From: an uncultured Anaerofilum sp.
Lineage (GTDB): Bacteria > Bacillota > Clostridia > Oscillospirales > Ruminococcaceae
Assembly (NCBI GenBank): GCA_944385935.1
Contig: CALWZC010000004.1
Coordinates: 75,426 to 139,425, forward strand
DNA length: 64,000 bases
Direction of reading: 5' to 3'
Part shown: positions 29,522 to 42,674 of the stretch, in pieces
Numbering within the stretch: the first letter of the stretch is position 1
Layout of the letters: the number at the start of each line of letters is the position of its first letter
Made by a program: the position numbers and the translations under genes
Notes under the pieces: generated by a model
Told to the model about the DNA's origin: nothing
What the model saw: only the letters and a program-made list of their open reading frames with translations
Databases searched by the model: none

Positions 29522-30145
29522 ATGAAAGGGCTATTGCTAAAAGATTTTTACATGACAATCAAATATGGTAAAACTTTGTTTCTGGTGGTCTTGGTTTTTT
29601 GGGCAATTTCTTGTTTTGATGATGGGGGAAGTTTTTTCCTGGTATACCCTATGATTTTAGCCGGAGTGCTTCCAATGTCCCTGATTTCTTTGGATGAACG
29701 GGAAAAATGGGTACAATACAGCGGAACATTGCCGTATACCAGAGCACAGTTAGTATCTTCAAAATATATCATAGGGCTTTTGTTGGGCGTTGGAGCATTT
29801 ATTCTTTCTATGGCGACTACTGCTGGCCGTATGTGGATGAATGGATATTTTTCTTTGTTAGAGTTTGGAACAATAGCCTCTCTTCTTCTTGTGTTGGGGT
29901 TGTTGCCGCCCACCATTTTACTGCCCTTTGTTTTCAAATTTGGAGCAGAAAAAGGCAGAATCATGTTTTATGTGGTGATTGGCTTGGCAACTGCTATTGG
30001 TACTTTATTGGCAGGGTTTGGATTTCAAATGCAGATGCAGACCAATGAATTTGCAATACTATTTGTAATGTGCACTGTGGCAGTATTGTTATATCTTGGC
30101 TCTTGGTGCCTTTCCGTTGCTTTTTATAAAAAACGAGAATTATAA
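29522..30145 (+). CDS. ABC-2 family transporter membrane protein
   Basis: 6 TM helices, follows the ATPase. Confidence 0.6.
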   Translation: MKGLLLKDFYMTIKYGKTLFLVVLVFWAISCFDDGGSFFLVYPMILAGVLPMSLISLDEREKWVQYSGTLPYTRAQLVSSKYIIGLLLGVGAFILSMATTAGRMWMNGYFSLLEFGTIASLLLVLGLLPPTILLPFVFKFGAEKGRIMFYVVIGLATAIGTLLAGFGFQMQMQTNEFAILFVMCTVAVLLYLGSWCLSVAFYKKREL

Positions 30146-30309
30146 TGTACAAAAAGGTTTTGTTTTTTCAAAAAGAGAACAGAACCTTTTTCTTTTGGTG
30201 TATTTTTCTGACAAAATGCCCTCTTTTTGCTAAAGTTCTGTTCACAAGTGAACAGAAATATGGTAGAATTACAAAAACATCTATCCATGACAAAGGAGGG
30301 AAAGCATCA

Positions 30310-31506
30310 ATGGACTTGACACAAGAAAAAGTGGAAAATTTTGTGTGCGAGAATTGCGGCGGAACATTAAAATGGAATATAGCAAAAAAGCAATTGGAGT
30401 GTGGGTCTTGTCACACTCCCTATACTCTGCAACAGGAATCTGTTATACAAGAGCATCCCTTTGAGGAATATCATCAGCGTGAGCAGCGAACAGAAGCATT
30501 TCCTGATGAAACAGTGGTAAAGTGTAACTCTTGTGGTGCAGAAGTAGTGTTTGATAGAGATGACACGGCAAAGGTCTGCCCTATGTGTGGGGCAACTCAG
30601 ATTTTGCCACAAAAGCAGGTGCAAGGTGTTCCACCAGATGGAGTTTTGCCCTTTGAAATAGATAAACAGGCAGCCCAGCAAAAATTTAAAAAATGGGTAA
30701 GAAGTCGTTGGTTTGCCCCCAATAAGCTAAAAACCGTTTACCAAGAGGGAAAACTGAATGGGGTGTATATTCCTTTCTGGACCTTTGACACACAAGCAAA
30801 TGGCGAGTACCATGGTAGAGGTGGCAAGGAGCATGTTCGAGAGGACAAAGACGGCAACAGACGTGTGGAAGTTCGTTGGATACCTGTAAGCGGGCATGTG
30901 GGAAAATTTTTTGATGATATCCAAATTTCTGCCTCCATGGGACAGGTGAATGAGGTTGTAGATAAGGTTTTACCCTATTCTACACAAACAAAGCTACATG
31001 GATATTCTCCTATGTATCTTTCGGGATTTTCGGCAGAACGATATGCCATTCCAGCAACACAGGCCGCCGAAACCATGAAAGAGAAAGTTCGGCGAGAGTT
31101 GAAACGGATGGCAGAGGAGGATATTCGGTCAAGAGGGTTTGACCGAGCAGATGTACAACACTTGAAACTGGATTTAGAAGATACTACCTATAAGCAAGTG
31201 TTGTTACCTGCATGGTTTTCTTCCTATGCCTACGGAAAAAAGCAGTATATGTACATTATCAATGGTGAGACCGGCGAAGTAGGAGGACAGAGGCCTTATA
31301 GCATCCCCAAAATTGCAGCGGCTGTTGTGGCTGCACTTGCGTTGGTGGGGCTAATTGTTTGGGGCTCTTCCGAAAAAACAGAGGCAGCCGTTTTTGCCAC
31401 ACCAACCACAGAGGTGGTTTATCAGCAGGAACAACCTGCAAATACAATTTTGATGAAAGAAGGAAATGCAAATGGCTTGGTTTGGACAAGGAAAGGACAC
31501 AATTGA
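30310..31506 (+). CDS. double-zinc-ribbon protein with C-terminal TM anchor (YdjG-like)
   Basis: Start MDLTQ after AAGGAGGG; two CxxC...CxxC ribbons (CENCGG..CGSCH; CNSCGA..CPMCG); central conserved domain; TM helix IPKIAAAVVAALALVGLIVWG. Confidence 0.5.
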   Translation: MDLTQEKVENFVCENCGGTLKWNIAKKQLECGSCHTPYTLQQESVIQEHPFEEYHQREQRTEAFPDETVVKCNSCGAEVVFDRDDTAKVCPMCGATQILPQKQVQGVPPDGVLPFEIDKQAAQQKFKKWVRSRWFAPNKLKTVYQEGKLNGVYIPFWTFDTQANGEYHGRGGKEHVREDKDGNRRVEVRWIPVSGHVGKFFDDIQISASMGQVNEVVDKVLPYSTQTKLHGYSPMYLSGFSAERYAIPATQAAETMKEKVRRELKRMAEEDIRSRGFDRADVQHLKLDLEDTTYKQVLLPAWFSSYAYGKKQYMYIINGETGEVGGQRPYSIPKIAAAVVAALALVGLIVWGSSEKTEAAVFATPTTEVVYQQEQPANTILMKEGNANGLVWTRKGHN

Positions 31507-32530
31507 GTGGGAAGAATTTCGAGATGATGTGCTATTTTACAAATGGCCCGGAAAGGAGATTAAAAAGGGTGCTCATCTAATTTTGCGCCCCGGACAAAAG
31601 GCAATCTTCTATGCAGATGGAGAAGTGGGAGCAGTATTTGAACGAGAGGGCAACTTTGATATTGCGTCGGAAATTGTACCCTTCTTTTCTACTCTAAAGG
31701 GATGGTTTAGCCTGCGAGGGGACAGCGGTATGCGGGCAGAGGTCTATTTTGTAAATGCAAAACAGCTTTTGCTCAACTGGGGAACCCGTCAGCGTGTAAT
31801 GATTCCTACCCCACAGGTTCCCGCAGGAATTCCAGTAGGTTGCAATGGTAATCTGGTGGTTGCTTTCCGAGATTATCAGCGGTTTATTCAAACAGTAGCT
31901 GGAGTACGCAGTACATATAGCCTAGAGGATATTTCTGAGCGAATTATGGGAGAACTAAGCCCCATTCTTTCTGAGGCAATTCTAGGCAAACAACAAATGA
32001 TAGGTGTCAATGCTTTGACAGGCCTCCAGCAAAACAGTAGAACCATTAGCAAGTTTATCTGTGAGGAATTGGACAAAGAGCTTTCTGATTTTGGTTTAGG
32101 TGTACAGGATGTCAATATTTTGGCATTCAATTACCCACCAGAAGTAGAAGCAATGGCTGCCAAAGTTGCTGGGCAAGCATTTGTAGGGGATGTAGGACGA
32201 TATGCCACCATCAGCATGGCAGATAGCTTTTCCACACCCAATGCAGCAGGTTCTGCAGCGGCTGGTGGCATGGGCTTAGCAATGGGTATGCAGATGGCAG
32301 GGCAGATGATGGGTACAATGGCAGGACAACAAAACCAGCAACCCCAACAACCCGCACAAACCTGTACAGCCTGTGGAATGAGTATACCCCAAGGGGCTAA
32401 ATTCTGCCCGGGATGTGGTGCAGCTGTGACCGCCGCACCCCAACAAACAGAAGGAGACCGCTTCTGTCCCAATTGCCGCAAAATGGTTTCTGGTAATTTC
32501 TGCCCAGATTGTGGAACAAAAACAGTATAA
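31472..32530 (+). CDS. SPFH/Band-7-like (Band_7_1, YdjI-like) protein with C-terminal double zinc ribbon
   Basis: SPFH-like N-domain; Gly/Met/Gln-rich linker; C-terminal CTACG..CPGCG and CPNCR..CPDCG ribbons. Confidence 0.55.
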   Translation: MAWFGQGKDTIEWEEFRDDVLFYKWPGKEIKKGAHLILRPGQKAIFYADGEVGAVFEREGNFDIASEIVPFFSTLKGWFSLRGDSGMRAEVYFVNAKQLLLNWGTRQRVMIPTPQVPAGIPVGCNGNLVVAFRDYQRFIQTVAGVRSTYSLEDISERIMGELSPILSEAILGKQQMIGVNALTGLQQNSRTISKFICEELDKELSDFGLGVQDVNILAFNYPPEVEAMAAKVAGQAFVGDVGRYATISMADSFSTPNAAGSAAAGGMGLAMGMQMAGQMMGTMAGQQNQQPQQPAQTCTACGMSIPQGAKFCPGCGAAVTAAPQQTEGDRFCPNCRKMVSGNFCPDCGTKTV

Positions 32531-32635: not shown

Positions 32636-32786
32636 AATTGAATTTTTAGGGGAAATAGCTTTTTTTATTTGCTTTTTGTTACTAAATAACAAGAAAAATG
32701 AAGCATTTTTGTAACAGAAAGTTATTTTCTGTAAAATATGCCTGATTTTATTTGCAGTATGGGAAAAAAGTTTGTTTTTTTAACAC

Positions 32787-32814: not shown

Positions 32815-32882
32815 TCTAACAGGTAATCTTTATATTAGAAAAATCTAATGAATTGTTTTGTGTTAGAAAGGGGTGCCTAAAA

Positions 32883-33206
32883 ATGAGTAATGAAACAAAT
32901 GTTTTGTTACAGTCGGTGTTGGAAATGGACCGGCAAGAACGGCTACGCACACAGGAGGCGGAGGACTACCGTGGAAAGGCCATGGCTCAGCTGGAGGACA
33001 GCCGTAAGGACATTCACCAAAAACACCAGCAGTTGGCACAGCAAAAAATAGAAGCATATACCCAACAGGAAAATGAACGTATGCAACAAACCTTGCAGAC
33101 CTTACAACAAAAAAGTGCAGCAGTAAAGCAAACACTAAACGCCACAAAGTCTGCCAAACAGGAACAATGGGTAGAAACAATTTTTGAGCGTGTTTTGGAA
33201 AGGTGA
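32883..33206 (+). CDS. V/A-type ATPase small coiled-coil stalk subunit (G/H-like)
   Basis: 108 aa, entirely helical, charged and Q-rich; first gene of the V-ATPase operon. Confidence 0.55.
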   Translation: MSNETNVLLQSVLEMDRQERLRTQEAEDYRGKAMAQLEDSRKDIHQKHQQLAQQKIEAYTQQENERMQQTLQTLQQKSAAVKQTLNATKSAKQEQWVETIFERVLER

Positions 33207-33214
33207 GGCGTTTT

Positions 33215-34273
33215 ATGGCAATTCCTTCCTTTGGTTCAAATGCAGTGTTGGCAAAGTGCCGTGCAATGTATGGCAAAAGCCTGACTGCTCGCAATTATAC
33301 AGAGTTGCTTGCCTGCCATACTGTGCCGGAAGTAGCAGCTTACTTGAAAACAAAAACCCATTATGCTTCTTGTTTGTCGGGGGTTACTCCTCAAGTAATT
33401 CACCGTGAACAGTTGGAAATTTTATTAAAGCGGTATCTGTTTGGACAATATGCTGCCCTTAGTCGATATGAAATTAGCTTAGGGCAGGATTTTTATTCCT
33501 ATTTTGTGGTAAAAAGCGAACTGGAAATGGTTTTAGCACAACTGCATAAAATCAATGCACAGGAACATATCCCTGTTATGGGCGCAGAGCCTGATTTTGT
33601 AAAAAAGTTTTCTCAGCTAAATGAAAGCAAAATTTCCTCTGCAAATAATCTCATGCAGTTGGCACACGCTTTGGATGGCACTCCCTATGGCAAAATTATT
33701 CATTCCTTTGTGGAAAAAACAACTTTTGATTTGCAAAGAGATGGCACATTGGAAATTGAAGCAGCCTTGATGGACTACGAGTATAGTGTCATGGAGGAGC
33801 TTTCCCAGAAACATCTAAAAGGAAAACAGTTGCAAGAAGTACTGGAAATTTTGAAACGTCAAAGCGATGTACAGGCAATTATCAATATGTTCCGTATGAA
33901 GAAGATGTTGCAATCTCCCAGTATGTATGTACGGCGCAGAGTTTCCATGCAACACACACAGCTTTCTTCTCAAAAAATCAATCAGCTTTTGGATGCGGAA
34001 AATGAGGAAGATTTTGTACGGGTGCTAAAAACTACCAGCTATGGAAAAGAACTGGCAAAGGTGGCATACGACTATATTGAAGAGGGAATGCAAAAGGTGC
34101 AGTACCATTTTCATTTAAAAAAATTCCGTTTTTCCACCAATCCCAGTGCAGTTATGCTGTGCTATTTGTTTTTGGCAGAAAATGAATTGACCAATGTTAC
34201 CCACATTATAGAGGGCATTCGATATGGAATGTCGCCAGAAGAAATTGAACGTCTTTTGGTAGGAATCCAGTGA
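33215..34273 (+). CDS. ntpC: V/A-type ATPase subunit C (V0 d)
   Basis: 352 aa helical protein, N-terminal pattern resembles NtpC/AtpC; operon context. Confidence 0.7.
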   Translation: MAIPSFGSNAVLAKCRAMYGKSLTARNYTELLACHTVPEVAAYLKTKTHYASCLSGVTPQVIHREQLEILLKRYLFGQYAALSRYEISLGQDFYSYFVVKSELEMVLAQLHKINAQEHIPVMGAEPDFVKKFSQLNESKISSANNLMQLAHALDGTPYGKIIHSFVEKTTFDLQRDGTLEIEAALMDYEYSVMEELSQKHLKGKQLQEVLEILKRQSDVQAIINMFRMKKMLQSPSMYVRRRVSMQHTQLSSQKINQLLDAENEEDFVRVLKTTSYGKELAKVAYDYIEEGMQKVQYHFHLKKFRFSTNPSAVMLCYLFLAENELTNVTHIIEGIRYGMSPEEIERLLVGIQ

Positions 34274-34290: not shown

Positions 34291-35253
34291 GTGTTTTTTG
34301 ATGAAAAAATACAGTTGGTATGGGTGGATGGCTCGGTGCAGCTTTTGGAAAGTTTTGTACAGAAGTGTTGCATGGGGGATGAACGTGTACATCCTACCAC
34401 AGCCAGCGATAAAATGAGCGCAGGCATGGGCTTTGCCCCCCCAGAAATAGAAAATAATTGGGCGCAGCGCATTGAGGAAATGGAACAGATGGCCCAAGGG
34501 CTGGAACTTCCAGTGGTAGAGCCTGCTTTTGAGGATGCTCGTTCTCCCAAATTGGATGGATATTTGCAGCGAGTCAAAACCGCTTTGGATGAGAAACGGA
34601 ATATTCTGAAAGATTTGGAGGCACAACAGGTTTTGTGTCAGCAGGGCATAGAGCAATTTTCCCATTTTGAAGAACTGGATGTGGATTTGAGCAAAGCTCT
34701 TGAATGTGAATACATTTCCATCCGTTTTGGAAAACTGCCCAAAGCTGGGTTTGAAACTCTGTTGAGGGAACACGGCGATGACCCTTATGTGTTCTTTATT
34801 CGGTGCAGCGAAGACAAGGATTTTTACTGGGGAATGTATTTTGCTCCCCGTGAAAAACGAGCTTTGGTAGATGGTATCTTTGCAGGCTTGTACTTTGAAC
34901 GAGTACGGTTGCCCGGTGCAGGGGGAACCCCAAAAGAAATTGTAGAAAATCTTCAACACAATGTAGAGATTTTGCGCAGCCAAATTTTGCAAGCACAAGA
35001 CCAACTACAACAGGTATGGGGAGCAGAAAAATGGCGTTGCGCTGGTATTTATGCCTCTTTTTGCAGTTTGGCCCGTGTAGCAGAGTTGTGCAAGTGTGCT
35101 GCTGTGCGGGGAGAGCATTTCTTCTATGCAGTATGGGTGGAACAAACTGCTATGGAAGCCTTTGTATCTCGCTGCGAATCTGTGGGCAAACTGCATATGG
35201 CAATGGATATGACCCTTCCCAGAAAGAAATGGAAACAGCTCCATCAGCAATAA
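34291..35253 (+). CDS. stand-alone paralog of the soluble N-terminal domain of V-ATPase subunit I
   Basis: GTG start after AGGAGAGG; 320 aa, no TM; alignable along its length to residues 1-330 of the downstream subunit I (shared IQLVWVDG/MKLVRVDG, DDPYVFF, YWG.YF.P, LYFER). Confidence 0.6.
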   Translation: MFFDEKIQLVWVDGSVQLLESFVQKCCMGDERVHPTTASDKMSAGMGFAPPEIENNWAQRIEEMEQMAQGLELPVVEPAFEDARSPKLDGYLQRVKTALDEKRNILKDLEAQQVLCQQGIEQFSHFEELDVDLSKALECEYISIRFGKLPKAGFETLLREHGDDPYVFFIRCSEDKDFYWGMYFAPREKRALVDGIFAGLYFERVRLPGAGGTPKEIVENLQHNVEILRSQILQAQDQLQQVWGAEKWRCAGIYASFCSLARVAELCKCAAVRGEHFFYAVWVEQTAMEAFVSRCESVGKLHMAMDMTLPRKKWKQLHQQ

Positions 35254-35294
35254 CGGCGGCTTATACCGCATGAGAAAGGACGATGAACTGATTC

Positions 35295-37226
35295 GTGGCC
35301 ATTGAAAAAATGAAGCTCGTCCGAGTGGATGGGCTGCTCAGTCAGTTGGATGATTTTATCCTGCGATGTTGCATTAATGGTGATTTTCAACCTGAACCTG
35401 CTATCCAGTATATGTCTGCTTCCAGTAAAAACATGTCCTTGGTGGAGGAAAACCCCTATCCACCTATGGTGCAGGCAGTAGAAGAATTGTTTGCTCTGGC
35501 AGAATATACCCCCCAAGAGGATAATAAAACCGAAAAAGAACGTACCATAGACCCCAAAGCCTTGGAAGCAGTGCAAACTGTAAAAGAAGAGTTGAAAGTT
35601 TTACAGCAACAGCAAAAAACACAACAGCGAGAACTGGCACAGCTTCAAGAGCGCAGCAACCAATATTCCCACTTTGAGTCGTTGGAAACTCCCCTAGAGG
35701 AACTGGAGGCGACAAAGTATATCAATATCCGTTTTGGATTTTTGCCGGGAGAGAGCTATCAAAAAATGCAGACCAGTTATGCAGATGACCCTTATGTATT
35801 TTTTGTGCCTTGCAGTCAGGAAAATGGCGGATATTGGGGATTATACTTTACCCCTCATCGGGTAGCAGATGAGATTGATGGCATTTTTTCCATGCTGTAC
35901 TTTGAGAGAATTTCTTTGGAAAACGATACTGGTACAGTAAAAGAAATTATGCAAAAGCTGCAAACACAAATCGACCAGTTGCAGCAAGAACTGGACAAAA
36001 CCAATGCAGCCATACAAAAGTTGTGGGAAGAAAATAAAGAATATTGCATTGGTGTGTACAGCCAGTTGAAATGGTTAGACCAAGTGTTTGAACTGCGGCA
36101 TTATGCAGCTTATCGGGATAACTATTTCTTCTATGTGGGATGGATTCCTGAAAGAGCTGTGCCAGAGTTTAGCAAGCAGGTAAAATCTCTGCGCAATATG
36201 AAAATTACCGTTACCGACCCCAGCAAACAGGACAAAATTGCTCCGCCGGTAAAGTTAAGGAACCTTTTACCCTTCCGGCCCTTTGAGATGTTTGTTGGAA
36301 TGTATGGCCTTCCCAGTTATGGAGAAATGGACATCACCGAATTTGTTGCCATTACATTTACTTTATTGTTTGGCATTATGTTTGGTGATATGGGACAGGG
36401 AGCTGTGCTTGCCATTGGTGCCTTTATCCTGTATAAGTGGAAGGGTATTGCTTTGGCGAAACTGGTTATTCCTTGTGGAATTTCTTCCATGTTCTTTGGG
36501 TTCATTTTCGGTTCGGTATTTGGATTTGAACATTTGCTAGACCCGGTATACCACGCCTTAGGCTGGAAAGGAAAGCCACTGGAAGTAATGGAATCCATCA
36601 ACACAGTGCTATTGGTTGCCATTGGTATTGGTGTTTCCTTGGTAATTGCTTCTATGTTGCTAAATGTTGTCGCTTCTGCACGAAAAGGACATTGGGGAGA
36701 GGCTATCTTCTCCAACAATGGTTTGGTAGGATTGGCAGTGTATATTTCTGGTGTAAACCTAGTAAGTGGATTTATGGGCGGCCCCAGCCCCATCCCTGCG
36801 CAAGTGGGACAATTCCTCATTGGTGCTGGTCTGGTTTTGCTGTTCTTTAAAGAGGTGCTGGTAGGTAAATTTGACGGGCACCCCGACTGGAAACCAGAAA
36901 GCTGGAGCGACTATGCTATGCAGAACTTGTTTGAACTACTGGAATATGTGCTTTCTTATTTTTCAAACACTGTTTCCTTCTTGCGTGTAGGTGCTTTCGT
37001 AATTGTCCATGCTGCTATGATGATGGTGGTATTTAGTCTGGCAGGAGACCCTGCAAACCCTGTGGTTGTGGTATTGGGCAATGCTTTGGTAATCTGTTTG
37101 GAAGGTTTGCTGTCTGGTATTCAGGGATTGCGTTTGGAATTCTATGAAATGTTTAGCCGCTGCTATGAGGGCGGTGGACGTCCTTTCCGGGGAGTTCGTC
37201 TTGCACCGGAAAAACAAAAGCACTAA
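35295..37226 (+). CDS. ntpI: V/A-type ATPase subunit I (a)
   Basis: 643 aa; N-terminal soluble domain plus C-terminal multi-TM domain; start MAIEKMKLV (GTG). Confidence 0.85.
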   Translation: MAIEKMKLVRVDGLLSQLDDFILRCCINGDFQPEPAIQYMSASSKNMSLVEENPYPPMVQAVEELFALAEYTPQEDNKTEKERTIDPKALEAVQTVKEELKVLQQQQKTQQRELAQLQERSNQYSHFESLETPLEELEATKYINIRFGFLPGESYQKMQTSYADDPYVFFVPCSQENGGYWGLYFTPHRVADEIDGIFSMLYFERISLENDTGTVKEIMQKLQTQIDQLQQELDKTNAAIQKLWEENKEYCIGVYSQLKWLDQVFELRHYAAYRDNYFFYVGWIPERAVPEFSKQVKSLRNMKITVTDPSKQDKIAPPVKLRNLLPFRPFEMFVGMYGLPSYGEMDITEFVAITFTLLFGIMFGDMGQGAVLAIGAFILYKWKGIALAKLVIPCGISSMFFGFIFGSVFGFEHLLDPVYHALGWKGKPLEVMESINTVLLVAIGIGVSLVIASMLLNVVASARKGHWGEAIFSNNGLVGLAVYISGVNLVSGFMGGPSPIPAQVGQFLIGAGLVLLFFKEVLVGKFDGHPDWKPESWSDYAMQNLFELLEYVLSYFSNTVSFLRVGAFVIVHAAMMMVVFSLAGDPANPVVVVLGNALVICLEGLLSGIQGLRLEFYEMFSRCYEGGGRPFRGVRLAPEKQKH

Positions 37227-37320
37227 GTGCTACTAAATGTTTGCCATGTTTCGCACATTGTGCGATATGGAAAGTGAAAATCACTTTTATAAAATCTTTT
37301 ATCATTTGGAGGAAGAATCT

Positions 37321-37773
37321 ATGAATACTCTGTTTCAACTGTTGTTTGCACTGGCTCCCGTAGCCATTTTGATGGGAGCAACCGCTCTGATTGCTCGCAA
37401 GGTAAGCGCAGGCAAAATTAGTGTGAAGAAGTCCTTTGGTATGAACTTGGCTGTCTTTGGTGTGATTATGGTAGTAGGCTGCATGATGGCTATGACTGTA
37501 TTTGCTGCTGATGGTGCCGCTGCAATGACCGCCGCAGAGCGTGCAGCAAGCAACCAGAGCATGGGTCTGGGTCTGTTGGCTGCTGCATTGGTAACCGGTT
37601 TGGCAGGTATCGGCGGTGGTATCGCTGTTGCCGCAGGTGCTCCTGCTGCTATCGCAGCTGCAAGCGAAGACCCCAAGAGCTTTGGTAAGTCCTTGATTTT
37701 CGTTGCTTTGGGCGAGTCTATTGCATTGTATGGTGTTGTTATCTCCATCTTGATTCTGAACAAGTTGGTATAA
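37321..37773 (+). CDS. ntpK: V/A-type ATPase proteolipid subunit K (c)
   Basis: Start MNTLFQLL after GGAGG; 150 aa, 4 TM, Gly/Ala-rich. Confidence 0.85.
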   Translation: MNTLFQLLFALAPVAILMGATALIARKVSAGKISVKKSFGMNLAVFGVIMVVGCMMAMTVFAADGAAAMTAAERAASNQSMGLGLLAAALVTGLAGIGGGIAVAAGAPAAIAAASEDPKSFGKSLIFVALGESIALYGVVISILILNKLV

Positions 37774-37795: not shown

Positions 37796-38104
37796 ATGCG
37801 TTTTTATCTAATCAGTGATAATGTAGATACATTGGTGGGCATGCGTTTGGCAGGCATTGAGGGAGTAGTAGCCCACGAAGATGCCGAGGTACAGCAAGCT
37901 CTGGATGAGGTGCTGAAAGCCGATGATATCGGCATGATTTTGGTTACTGAAAAGTTGATGCGCCAATTTGGTGAGCATTTTGACCAAGTGCGCCAAACCA
38001 TGACAAAGCCCCTAATTGTGGAAATTCCCGACCGGCATGGTGCCGTAAACGGAAAAGACCGCATTACCAAATATGTGCGTGATGCCATTGGCGTCAAGAT
38101 TTGA
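37796..38104 (+). CDS. ntpF: V/A-type ATPase subunit F
   Basis: 102 aa; MRFYLISDNVDTLVGMRLAGIEG typical of subunit F. Confidence 0.8.
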   Translation: MRFYLISDNVDTLVGMRLAGIEGVVAHEDAEVQQALDEVLKADDIGMILVTEKLMRQFGEHFDQVRQTMTKPLIVEIPDRHGAVNGKDRITKYVRDAIGVKI

Positions 38105-38114
38105 GGTGTAAAGG

Positions 38115-38708
38115 ATGATTCAGCAACAAGAGCGTGCAGAAAAGTTTTTTCGGGCAATTCGCAGAGATGCTGAACGGCGGCGTAAGCAGATTATCAGCCA
38201 AATTGATGAATATATCGCCGCAGAAACCGAAAAAATAGAGCAGGCGGAATTGCAATCTGCCAATGAACGGGTACAATATGAAACCCAACGTATACAATCC
38301 CAAACCAACAGCCAGTTGGCAAAGGAAACCACCGAAATCAGTGCAGAGTTGGCTGCCTACCGTAGCGCAATTACCAAAGAGGTATTTGAACAAGTGGCAC
38401 AGAAGCTGGCAGTATTTGTGAAAAGCCAACAGTATCAGCAATGGTTGTCTGATGGATTGGGCCAAATGGAAAAACTTCTTGGTGCGGGGATGACAGTGTA
38501 TGCTGCCCCTGCTCAGGTGGAACAGGTAGAAAAAGCTGTTGCAATGGCAAAGGTAGACTGTACAGTCAAAGCAGACGAAAACATCCATTTGGGTGGTGTT
38601 CGTGCAGAAAAAGGCAGCAAAAAGGTGGATGACACACTGGACAGCCGCCTGAAAAGTCAAGAGGATTGGTTCTACCAGAACTCTGGTCTTTCCATTGCAA
38701 TTCAGTGA
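38115..38708 (+). CDS. ntpE: V/A-type ATPase subunit E
   Basis: 197 aa; long N-terminal helix, C-terminal globular domain; operon position. Confidence 0.75.
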   Translation: MIQQQERAEKFFRAIRRDAERRRKQIISQIDEYIAAETEKIEQAELQSANERVQYETQRIQSQTNSQLAKETTEISAELAAYRSAITKEVFEQVAQKLAVFVKSQQYQQWLSDGLGQMEKLLGAGMTVYAAPAQVEQVEKAVAMAKVDCTVKADENIHLGGVRAEKGSKKVDDTLDSRLKSQEDWFYQNSGLSIAIQ

Positions 38709-38723
38709 AACGAGGTGTAAGCG

Positions 38724-40502
38724 GTGAGTGAACCGATTCGGATTCATGGCATCAATGGCCCAGTTGTTACCATTCAGGGAAAAACTGGCCTTGGCATGAT
38801 GGAAATGGTGTATGTAGGCGACCAGCGACTGGTGGGTGAAGTCATCGGGCTGGATAGCAATAAAACCACCATTCAGGTATATGAGGAAACAGGCGGCCTT
38901 CGTCCCGGTCAGCCAGTATTCTCTACTGGTGGCCCCATGTGTGTAACATTGGGCCCCGGCATTTTAAAAAATATTTACGATGGTATTCAGCGGCCGCTGC
39001 CTGCCATTGAGAAACAATCAGGGGCATTTATTGGCAAGGGTGCCGATGTTCCTGCTCTAGACCCCGATGCAGTATGGGATGTAACTTTGACTGTAAAAGA
39101 GGGGGATACTCTCTCTGCTGGTCAAGTGTACGCCACTTGTCCCGAAACTCCCATCATTCTACATAAATGTATGTTGGCTCCGGGCAAAAGTGGAACCATT
39201 GTATGGGTTGCTCCAAACGGAAGCTACCGAGTCAATGATGTTGTGGCAAAATTGCAACGGCAGGACGGAACCATTGAGGAGTTGACCTTGTGCCAAAAAT
39301 GGCCCATCCGTACTCCTCGCCCAGTAACCAACCGCATGGGTGCAACCCGCCCCTTGATTACTGGTCAGCGTGTAATTGATACCATGTTCCCCATTGCAAA
39401 GGGCGGTGCAGCCGCCATCCCTGGTGGATTTGGTACCGGTAAAACTATGACCCAGCACCAGTTGGCAAAATGGTGTGACGCAGATATTATTATTTACGTG
39501 GGCTGTGGCGAACGTGGTAATGAGATGACACAGGCTTTGACCGAGTTCGGTGAGATTACCGACCCCAAGTCTGGCCGTCCCCTAACAGATAGAACCGTGT
39601 TGATTGCCAATACTTCCAATATGCCTGTGGCTGCCCGTGAGGCTTCCATCTACACAGGCGTTACCTTGGCAGAATATTACCGTGATATGGGCTATCATAC
39701 TGCTATGATGGCAGACTCTACCAGCCGTTGGGCGGAGGCATTGCGTGAAATTAGCGGACGTTTGGAAGAAATGCCTGCGGATGAAGGCTTCCCCGCATAT
39801 CTGCCCAGCCGTTTGGCAGAGTTTTACGAGCGTGCAGGTTATGTGTCTACCTTGAACGGGCAAGAAGGTTCTGTCACCTTGATTGGTGCAGTTAGCCCAC
39901 AGGGTTCCGACTTTTCCGAGCCTGTTACCCAGAATACAAAGCGGTTTACCCGTTGTTTCTGGGCATTGGATAAGGCATTGGCTTATGCTCGTCACTATCC
40001 GGCCATCAACTGGAACGACAGCTACTCAGAGTATACCAGCGATTTGGCACATTGGTACTATGACCATGTAGGCCCTGACTTTATGGCTTACCGTGAGGAA
40101 TTGGCAGGAATTTTGTTGCAGGAAAACAGCTTGATGGAGATTGTAAAGCTGATTGGTTCCGATGTATTGCCCGATGACCAAAAACTGGTTATTGAGATTG
40201 CTCGTGTGGTTCGGGTAGGATTCTTGCAGCAAAATGCTTTCCACAAGGATGACACCTTTGTACCTATGGAAAAGCAATTAAAAATGATGCAGGTAATTTT
40301 GCACCTGTATCACAAATGCCAAGATATTGTGGCACGACAGGTGCCCCTTTCCCAGATTATTAAATTGGGATTGTTTGATAAAGTGATTAAGATTAAATAT
40401 GATGTACCCAATGACCAACTAGATTTGCTGGATGGGTATATCACAGAAATCAATCAGGCGTTGGGGCAGTTCCTCAACACCGATTACAGAAAGGGGGAAT
40501 AA
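38724..40502 (+). CDS. ntpA: V/A-type ATPase catalytic subunit A
   Basis: 592 aa; P-loop GGFGTGKT; non-homologous region; GTG start after GAGGTG. Confidence 0.95.
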
Positions 40503-40505
40503 GGG

Positions 40506-41882
40506 ATGATTCTGGAGCATATTGGTCTTTCTCAGATTAACGGTTCTCTGGTAGTTCTAGATGATGTGGAAGATGCCAGCTATGATGAAATGGTGGAAAT
40601 GCACCTAGACGACGGCAGCCACCGTGTAGGCCGTGTGGTTATGATTGAAGGTAGTCGTATTGTTGTTCAGGTGTTTGAGGGAACCCGTGGTCTTTCTTTG
40701 GATAATACCCGCACCGTACTTACCGGCCATCCCATGGAAATTGACCTTTCCCCGGAAATTTTGGGCCGTACCTTTGATGGATTGGGTCGCCCCATTGATG
40801 GCATGGGAGCCATCTTCCCACAGGTTCGCCGGGATGTAAATGGTTCGCCCATCAACCCCGTTTCCCGTGTCTATCCCCGAAACTACATTCGTACTGGTAT
40901 TTCCAGTATTGACTGCTTAGCCACCTTGATTCGTGGTCAAAAACTGCCCATTTTCTCTGGTTCCGGTATGAAACACAACGAATTGGCAGTACAGATTGTA
41001 CAGCAGGCAAATGTATCGGATGGAAGTGAATTTGCCATCGTATTTGCGGCAATGGGTGTAAAAAACGATGTAGCGGAGTACTTTAAGTCCAGTTTTGAAA
41101 AAGCCAATGTTATGGACAGGGTTGTTATGCTGCTAAATTTGGCAAATGACCCCATCATTGAACGTATTTTGACCCCCCGTTGTGCATTGACTATTGCAGA
41201 GTATCTTGCCTTTGATTTGGGCATGAATATTCTGGTGGTTATGACCGATATGAGTAGTTATTGTGAGGCGTTGCGTGAGTTCTCCTCCTCCAAAGGAGAG
41301 ATTCCAGGAAGAAAAGGCTTCCCCGGCTACCTCTACTCCGACCTTGCCAGCTTGTATGAACGTGCCGGCATTGTGCAGGGCAAAAAGGGTTCTGTGACTC
41401 AGATTCCCATTTTGACTATGCCTGGTGATGATATTACTCACCCTATTCCTGACTTGACCGGATATATCACCGAAGGCCAGATTGTTTTGGATAGAAGTCT
41501 GGATGCTACTGGTGTATATCCTCCTGTTAGTGTGTTGCCTAGCTTGTCCCGTCTGATGAAGGACGGCATTGGCGCAGGCTATACCCGCGATGACCATTCG
41601 GCATTGTCTAACCAGTTGTTTGCATTGTATGCCCGTGTGCAGGATGCAAAGGCATTGGCCAGTGTTATTGGTGAAGATGAGCTTAGTCCGGCTGACAAGC
41701 GAGTATTGCAATTTGGTAAAGCCTTTGAACAGCGTTTTGTAGGGCAAGGCTTTACCAACCGAACCATGGAAGAAACCCTAGATTTGGGCTGGGAGCTGTT
41801 GGGTATGCTTGACCGCAGCGAGCTTGACCGTGTGGATGATGCTATCCTAGACCAGCACTACAAGCCCTATCAGGCGGAATAA
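40506..41882 (+). CDS. ntpB: V/A-type ATPase subunit B
   Basis: 458 aa; typical B-subunit sequence. Confidence 0.95.
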
Positions 41883-41915: not shown

Positions 41916-42542
41916 ATGGCACAACAGGTATTTCCTACAAAAAGCAATCTAATGGCAACCAAAAAAAGCCTTGCTCTGTCCAAACAGGGCTATGAACTCA
42001 TGGACCGCAAACGAAACATTTTGGTGCGGGAAATGATGCAGTTGATTGACCGTGCTGCTGAGATTCAAACAAAAATCGAGGTAGCATATTCCAGTGCATA
42101 CCGCGCTTTGCAGCGAGCCAATGTAACACTGGGAATGGTTGGCAAATTTGCCAACAGTGTGCCCCAAGAGGAAGGCTTACAACTGGAGTTTCGCAGTGTA
42201 ATGGGTGTGGAATTGCCCATCGTAAAGCTGGAAAGCCAGCAGCCAACACAGTTTTACTATGGATTGTACTCCACCAACAGCCAGCTTGATGATGTATATG
42301 AGCAGTTTGAGGAAGTAAAGCGGTTGACTGTGGAATTGGCAGAAGTAGAGGGAAGTGTTTATCGTCTTGCGGTAGCCATCAAAAAGACCCAAAAACGAGC
42401 CAATGCCTTAAATAACATTATGATTCCGAAATTCACTGCCACTATCAAGTTTATTACAGAGGCTTTGGAGGAAAAGGAGAGAGAGGAATTTTCTCGCCTA
42501 AAGGTTATTAAAAGCCAAAAGGACAAGGCCGAACAACAGTAA
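41916..42542 (+). CDS. ntpD: V/A-type ATPase subunit D
   Basis: 208 aa; helical; MAQQVFPTKSNLMATKKSLALSKQGYELMDRKR characteristic of subunit D. Confidence 0.9.
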   Translation: MAQQVFPTKSNLMATKKSLALSKQGYELMDRKRNILVREMMQLIDRAAEIQTKIEVAYSSAYRALQRANVTLGMVGKFANSVPQEEGLQLEFRSVMGVELPIVKLESQQPTQFYYGLYSTNSQLDDVYEQFEEVKRLTVELAEVEGSVYRLAVAIKKTQKRANALNNIMIPKFTATIKFITEALEEKEREEFSRLKVIKSQKDKAEQQ

Positions 42543-42674
42543 TTTGTTGCCATAAAAACAGCACCTTATTTTTTGCCACTGTAGCAAAGAATAGGGTGTT
42601 TTTTGTATTGCAATTACCTGTGGAAAAAATAGGGTGTGTATGATACAATAGACAAAAATCAAAGGAGGACAAGA

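Follow-up and report, generated by a model that had tools for sequence, protein, structure and literature searches.

In a 64,000-nt window of the genome of an uncultured Anaerofilum sp. (GCA_944385935.1, contig CALWZC010000004.1), the operon for the V/A-type ATPase carries, in addition to a complete gene for the membrane subunit I (ntpI), a separate gene for a soluble and diverged copy of the cytoplasmic arm of that subunit. The two genes together occupy positions 34291-37226 of the window, with the extra arm gene, referred to here as S, at 34291..35253 (320 aa), and ntpI, which is full length, at 35295..37226 (643 aa). They belong to an operon of ten genes, all on the plus strand, in the order G-C-S-I-K-F-E-A-B-D. 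Analysis of this gene and its relatives establishes its paralogy with NtpI, its arm fold, its membership of the operon, purifying selection on its sequence, its occurrence in multiple lineages, the existence of forms fused to subunit I, and the conservation of its distal lobe. The anatomy and distribution of S are solid; its function, for which we favour a role as an accessory subunit of the stator collar, is inferred.

The S open reading frame (ORF) has a GTG start codon, with a GGAGAGG ribosome binding site (RBS) 7 nt upstream, and its own stop codon. BLASTP aligns residues 5-315 of S co-linearly with residues 4-314 of the adjacent NtpI, with 104 of 314 positions identical (33%), 53% positives, 6 gaps and an E value of 4e-50. 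A first-pass annotation, made from the letters of the window, had described a 320-aa protein without a transmembrane (TM) segment between ntpC and ntpI that aligns along its length with the N-terminus of subunit I, and this description proves accurate: the ORF coordinates are exact, there is no hydrophobic segment in S, compared with about 8-12 in full-length relatives, and all of the shared blocks that it quoted (EKIQLVWVDG/EKMKLVRVDG, FSHFEELD/YSHFESLE, DDPYVFF, YWGMYFAP/YWGLYFTP, DGIFAGLYFER/DGIFSMLYFER and the W..E....GIY region) fall inside the BLASTP alignment. Structure prediction, put forward there as a check, likewise gives a two-lobe arm fold: the AlphaFold2 model of S (pLDDT 86.4) has two alpha/beta lobes with a long antiparallel helical hairpin between them, and its best fold matches are the arms of subunits a and I. 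A profile of the S family retrieves several hundred subunit I proteins. S has no Pfam match at E<=0.01, so that the threshold of PF01496 is not reached, and it scores 20-37 bits against the NCBIfam models of subunit I (PRK05771), for which the cut-offs are 670-777. The protein ends at residue 320, within the equivalent of the NtpI linker, and the membrane domain has no counterpart in it. S thus shares its ancestry with the arm domain of subunit a/I, but the missing membrane domain and the sub-threshold family scores set it apart from subunit I proper. The parental arm (NtpI residues 1-325; 35295..36269, plus strand) is delimited by BLASTP and by the aNT profile, which covers 1-326, and the remainder of NtpI (36270..37226, plus strand) is the membrane domain that forms the ion channel half, identified by PF01496; among solved structures its best match is E. 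hirae NtpI (8wci_P, E=1.2e-21).

S is confirmed as a real gene, an extra and diverged stand-alone copy of the NtpI arm. Its relatives form 10 protein clusters that are 49-100% identical to S and are all 319-321 aa in length; they occur in an Anaerofilum metagenome-assembled genome (MAG), which has the nearest NtpI (78%), followed by Allofournierella, Fournierella and Gemmiger, the cultured carriers being Gemmiger sp. An194 and An87. In all of these relatives the gene lies between ntpC and ntpI, in the same order G-C-S-I-K-F-E-A-B-D. In four comparisons S, the NtpI arm and subunit C have equal dN, and omega for S is about 0.08-0.23 where dS is unsaturated. There is next to no probability that S is instead a decaying duplicate or an artefact, such as the remnant of a pseudogene, a single gene broken by a frameshift, or a duplication introduced during assembly. 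Such an origin could be suspected from the lack of a Pfam match, from the database label “hypothetical protein” on the one named member of the S clusters, and from the often short life of partial tandem duplicates. However, the frame is intact and of constant length across the whole range of identities, the selection is purifying, and dS in the remaining comparisons has reached saturation; a pseudogene or split gene is effectively refuted by these observations together with the two whole arms. As the first-pass annotation had argued against a frameshift, both genes carry the complete arm and NtpI is full length; the 41-nt spacer between them is moreover too short for a degraded membrane domain, and S and ntpI lie in different frames, with a stop codon in the ntpI frame directly 5′ of the ntpI start. 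Its exclusion of an assembly duplicate also stands, given the divergence of the copy and the presence of the same arrangement in independent assemblies and isolates.

Conservation is unevenly distributed along S. The distal alpha/beta lobe (residues 125-213; 34663..34929, plus strand) is the best-conserved module, 48% identical to that of its own NtpI, compared with 8-41% in other regions of S. It is flanked by the two helices of the hairpin (residues 88-124 and 214-267; 34552..35091, plus strand), as delimited by DSSP on the AlphaFold2 model. In all three short families compared by region, the distal lobe is the part closest to the cognate NtpI (48%, 44% and 67% identity); in the two older families, identity is only 8-24% for the C-terminal part near the membrane and for the tail. 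Between independent short families, the lobe is 38% identical, versus 6-19% elsewhere. Residues that are invariant in NtpI (F146, G147, P150, F169, W180, G181, Y183, P186, D194, F197, F202, E203 and G212) are largely kept in the short families, and the distal-lobe motifs RFGxLP, WGxYFxP and DxIFxxLxFE, with G212, are mostly retained in all three of the families. The NtpI-invariant residues Y269, G281 and P284, near the membrane connection, are lost in the short family of the window. S ends in a basic C-terminal tail, MTLPRKKWKQLHQQ (35206..35250, plus strand), the counterpart of the NtpI juxtamembrane linker; the last 18 residues carry a net charge of +3, and the body -15. The short proteins generally combine an acidic body (net about -13 to -15) with a basic tail, the charge of the tail being at least +2 in 26 of 35 and 44 of 48 short proteins of other families. 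The residues with which the T. thermophilus arm contacts rotor subunit d (L144, R196, A197 and E201) could not be mapped on S, as the arm is too diverged for sequence alignment with solved structures.

The arm gene is not peculiar to this genome, but is found in several Bacillota lineages. A profile of the gene across V-ATPase operons of Clostridia, which the first-pass annotation had proposed, was obtained by scanning species-representative genomes with an NtpI alignment, yielding 80 Oscillospirales operons. In eleven of these (L014-L019, L030, L039, L040, L042 and L051) a free-standing arm gene separates C from I, and a twelfth (L054, of Acutalibacteraceae) has an in-frame fusion, encoding a single 943-aa arm-arm-membrane protein; in the other 68, C is followed directly by I. 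The annotation had also called the operon order unusual, and in this it was mistaken. The arm gene aside, C lies immediately upstream of I in essentially all of the 80 loci, and in every fully annotated related locus C is directly 5′ of I, followed by K-F-E-A-B-D. The order is thus normal for the type and the inserted arm gene is the sole special feature. An exhaustive profile search identified further TM-less proteins of 306-338 aa. In operons of the Fimenecus type the C-I slot is taken by a second short family (about 315 aa), and a third and larger set, of some 48 clusters (317-349 aa), comes from Izemoplasmatales, Acholeplasmataceae, “Tenericutes”, Bacillota and Clostridiaceae MAGs, its named members being mostly labelled “hypothetical protein”. 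In all three loci of the third set that were examined (from Izemoplasmatales-type, “Tenericutes” and Clostridiaceae MAGs) the gene is in the C-I slot, with a complete 640-aa NtpI beside it, and a member of the set likewise gives a confident model of an arm (pLDDT 86.9, TMq 0.66-0.71). A metagenome scan with protein P0013 gave no matches. The subunit I-like proteins P0237-P0245, of approximately 480-510 aa and several with PF01496, cover 90-100% of the arm query; they could represent variants of subunit I with reduced length, or incomplete gene calls.

Extra arms also occur within subunit I itself. The profile search also brought up long forms of subunit I (749-946 aa), in which two or three stretches resemble the arm. 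In the 749-905-aa class (P0014, P0017, P0021, P0037, P0055, P0062, P0080, P0081, P0092, P0097, P0134 and P0139) the arm part is present two- or threefold before the membrane domain, and the repeated part is mainly the distal-lobe region, giving extra lobes in a single chain. The fusion at L054:5014-7845, along with P0043 (939 aa) and P0089 (946 aa), has a complete arm, a second arm minus its first approximately 50 positions, and then the membrane domain. In two subunit I proteins of approximately 790 aa, a distal-lobe-like segment (profile positions ~123-210) is found inside the C-terminal membrane half (P0066, 571-651; P0084, 549-634), as if placed in a cytoplasmic loop. The covalent attachment of extra arms to subunit I argues that they are a permanent part of the stator, in cis.

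Judged from sequence comparison, the short genes most likely arose through tandem duplications of the 5′ half of ntpI that occurred repeatedly, because the short proteins are closest to their own NtpI and show no trace of recent gene conversion. The closest match of each short protein is the adjacent NtpI or an arm from its own lineage, with identities to the own NtpI arm of 60% (L095), 53% (L096), 47% (L030), 41% (L094), 32% (S of the window, in this cross-locus comparison) and 29% (L010), and identities of 14-36% among short proteins of different lineages. S of the window is only slightly closer to its own arm (32%) than to the arms of other lineages (30-31%). In the fused L054 protein the two arms group together as sisters with 98% bootstrap support, and being closest to each other they represent an independent in-frame duplication. 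A single ancient clade of short genes appeared in a first neighbour-joining tree only; denser sampling and bootstrapping place the groups beside the NtpI arms of their own lineages. Recent gene conversion is rejected by a third-position identity of 0.40-0.49, a longest identical run of 11-20 nt, and a same-codon excess of z = -1.0 to 2.7; a single older origin with episodic ancient conversion is a conceivable alternative. A cysteine motif (Q-x3-C-x2-G with C139) was considered as a derived trait of the short proteins and discarded, as it is ancestral, being present in 22 of 34 (Q-x3-C-x2-G) and 29 of 34 (C139) NtpI proteins from operons without S; it is lost in the NtpI of the window. A tandem duplication of this kind would leave a membrane-free arm copy 5′ of the intact gene, landing automatically between ntpC and ntpI, and the surviving duplicates would be those copies truncated at the domain boundary. 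Fimenecus-type operons offer a view of the turnover: L010, L012, L039 and L040 have an old short gene, 28-30% identical to the own arm, L030 and L042 a younger one (47%), and the close relatives L031, L033 and L076 have none. The gene has thus been gained, replaced and lost within this group, and a functional enzyme does not depend on it.

The A3B3 head of the rotary ATPase is three-fold symmetric. In the T. thermophilus enzyme, each lobe of the subunit a arm holds one E-G stalk (PMC7367684), and the prokaryotic collar consists of subunit a alone, with two stalks (PMC6131620; PMC3470569). The eukaryotic V-ATPase has three stalks, held by the arm together with the soluble subunits C and H (PMC6131620; PMC3470569), and the third stalk and soluble collar subunits have been described as inventions of eukaryotes only (PMC6131620). 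Against this background, S is quite possibly, if still somewhat short of probably, an accessory collar subunit, the distal lobe of which would bind the end of an E-G stalk and provide an extra anchor for the stator. The distal lobes of S and NtpI would be expected to share a binding partner, the membrane-proximal end of an E-G stalk; S would thereby join the collar as an additional anchoring arm, its incorporation and stoichiometry being part of the prediction, and the linker-derived basic tail might hold it at the membrane surface beside NtpI. Given a three-fold head and two stalks in prokaryotes, the simplest outcome would be a third stalk, possibly at the otherwise unused third site of A3B3, or a cross-braced collar. 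That some Bacillota V/A-ATPases have a eukaryote-like stator of three stalks, with an arm-only paralogue, free or fused, that anchors the third and has arisen repeatedly, is a more tentative proposal, and on balance a rather doubtful one.

The same lobe is central to the main rival, that S is a regulator, acting as a brake, which we regard as unlikely. Here the distal lobe would bind rotor subunit d, or S would sequester free E-G, so as to stop rotation, leakage of ions or wasteful ATP hydrolysis in certain conditions. In the isolated Vo of T. thermophilus the distal lobe of the arm docks on d and mechanically blocks rotation (PMC7367684), and it is this lobe that S conserves; that auto-inhibition is, however, a property of the membrane subunit's own arm and, unlike S, involves no separate protein. 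Retention of the distal lobe in all short families examined, with a proximal lobe free to diverge, would suit a brake, as would the dispensability of S and its gain and loss among close relatives, as expected of a modulator. A conditional inhibitor would nonetheless be oddly served by arm-arm-membrane fusions and nested distal-lobe duplications, which fix the module to the stator in a 1:1 ratio, and S is co-encoded with the structural genes, with predicted constitutive co-transcription, no sensor domain and no separate promoter. The dispensability of S is compatible with a role as an assembly factor, which the first-pass annotation had suggested as an alternative to changed stalk contacts: a soluble surrogate arm on which E-G and V1 would be pre-assembled before being handed to NtpI, and which would be absent from the mature enzyme. 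Although S retains the partner-binding lobe without a membrane domain, and is encoded directly 5′ of ntpI in the operon, this role appears improbable: fused forms are not releasable, and in the main family S evolves in step with the structural arm, not faster. The covalent extra arms count against both a freely diffusing decoy and a released chaperone. Bacterial V-ATPases are not known to need an assembly factor of this kind. Recruitment of S to a role apart from the ATPase, such as scaffolding another complex at the membrane periphery, with its place in the operon a matter of historical linkage, would accord with the strong divergence of its proximal lobe and tail from NtpI. It is nevertheless very unlikely, given that every short gene examined sits between ntpC and ntpI, that NtpI-invariant residues of the distal lobe are kept, and that fusion to NtpI occurs.

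S can be compared with several known components. It resembles the subunit a/I arm (a_sol, aNT or I_NT; T. thermophilus 6r0z chain N, M. ruber 3rrk, E. hirae NtpI) in its lobes, hairpin and distal motifs, and differs from it in being a separate polypeptide, additional to a complete NtpI, with a diverged proximal C-terminal part and linker and a basic tail. In being soluble, with two globular ends, a helical segment between them and no membrane anchor, S is also like eukaryotic subunit C (Vma5p, ATP6V1C; 1u7l), which provides an extra E-G stalk anchor beside the arm of subunit a, and which we propose as a functional analogue of S. Homology of the two is not supported: there is a weak architectural resemblance alone, S has no match to subunit C in Pfam (V-ATPase_C) or among PDB sequences, and subunit C is reported to have “no homologs in A and F-type ATPases” (PMC6131620; PMC3470569). 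The eukaryotic a isoforms (Vph1p/Stv1p; a1-a4) are, as with S, paralogues with arms diverged for different roles, but they are alternative complete subunits, one per enzyme, whereas S is arm-only and co-encoded with a complete subunit.

In the open-access literature, including a 2025 paper on a database of prokaryotic rotary ATPase operons, no account was found of a separate arm gene, a three-stalk prokaryotic enzyme, or fused or lobe-duplicated subunit I, nor of an arm origin of subunit C. As a selectively maintained, recurrent and operon-encoded soluble arm, S would rank as the first bacterial candidate for an additional collar subunit, and, should the three-stalk proposal be true, a living model for the evolution of the eukaryotic collar and subunit C from a two-stalk prokaryotic ancestor. 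The growth of stator complexity in rotary ATPases thereby becomes approachable by experiment, with natural pairs with and without the gene among the Fimenecus relatives and with the cultured Gemmiger carriers. The carriers are abundant gut anaerobes, for which the V-ATPase is a central bioenergetic enzyme, and as the short genes are labelled “hypothetical protein” wherever they are named, and have no Pfam family, the annotation gap is one that can be closed.

The junction between S and ntpI (35272..35297, plus strand) is itself conserved, with the structure GAAAGGA-N2-ATGAACTGA-N3-GTG, comprising an RBS-like element and a Met-Asn-stop mini-ORF (35283-35291) that ends 3 nt before the ntpI GTG. 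It is invariant among the window, L007:4075-4094, L008:5919-5938 (and L009) and L014:7984-8003, with a slightly shorter spacer in L005, despite saturated dS in the flanking coding sequence. The Fournierella/Gemmiger group has instead a 9-codon out-of-frame upstream ORF across a TTG start. From its sequence, this junction may serve translational coupling or control of the S:NtpI ratio.

The other operon features, all on the plus strand, are as follows. A promoter-like site, TTGTAA-17-TAAAAT (32709..32737), falls in the sole sizeable intergenic gap before G; it comes from a consensus scan alone and is weak, with 9 of 12 matches. The first gene (32883..33206), conserved in this position in all related loci, encodes a 107-aa coiled-coil protein that we regard as putative stalk subunit G from its size, position and a weak coiled-coil match to the b subunit of chloroplast ATP synthase (E=0.007), a Pfam scan giving no match; its mechanical ORF begins at 32853, and homologues begin MSNETN. 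It is followed by ntpC (33203..34273), the rotor-socket subunit d/C (PF01992, E=1.8e-56). Downstream of ntpI, the c-ring subunit gene ntpK (37321..37773) is recognised by PF00137 on its C-terminal hairpin, which alone matches the ATP-synt_C family, the N-terminal hairpin being unrecognisable; its mechanical ORF (37237-37773) is over-extended, as homologues begin MNTLFQ, which places the true start at 37321. The remaining genes are ntpF (37796..38104, PF01990), ntpE for peripheral-stalk subunit E (38115..38708, PF01991), ntpA (38724..40502, PF00006, PF16886 and PF22919), ntpB (40506..41882, PF00006 and PF22919) and ntpD (41916..42542, PF01813). An intrinsic-terminator-like hairpin (42560..42600), with a 17-pair stem and then a T run, closes the operon and is the strongest plus-strand site of its kind within 32.3-43 kb; in the same scan, no comparable site was found in the S-ntpI interval.

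Directly 5′ of the operon (30145-32530) are two overlapping genes. The product of one (453 aa) has several zinc-ribbon motifs along with a TM segment at its C-terminus, and that of the other (354 aa) is an SPFH/Band-7 protein with a double zinc ribbon at its end; this pair has no evident connection to the ATPase. At L003:13079-14803, a metagenome contig, the K-F gene pair is repeated in tandem with the first F truncated (72 aa), which reflects either a genuine duplication at this site or an error of assembly. In the Fournierella-type contigs L001 and L003 (642-7992), an integrase, HTH and Fic block lies immediately 5′ of the V-ATPase operon, and in L002:1-8156, a further contig encoding an identical short protein, the housekeeping genes dnaX, recR and smpB are found in its place, which suggests that a mobile element has inserted beside the operon.

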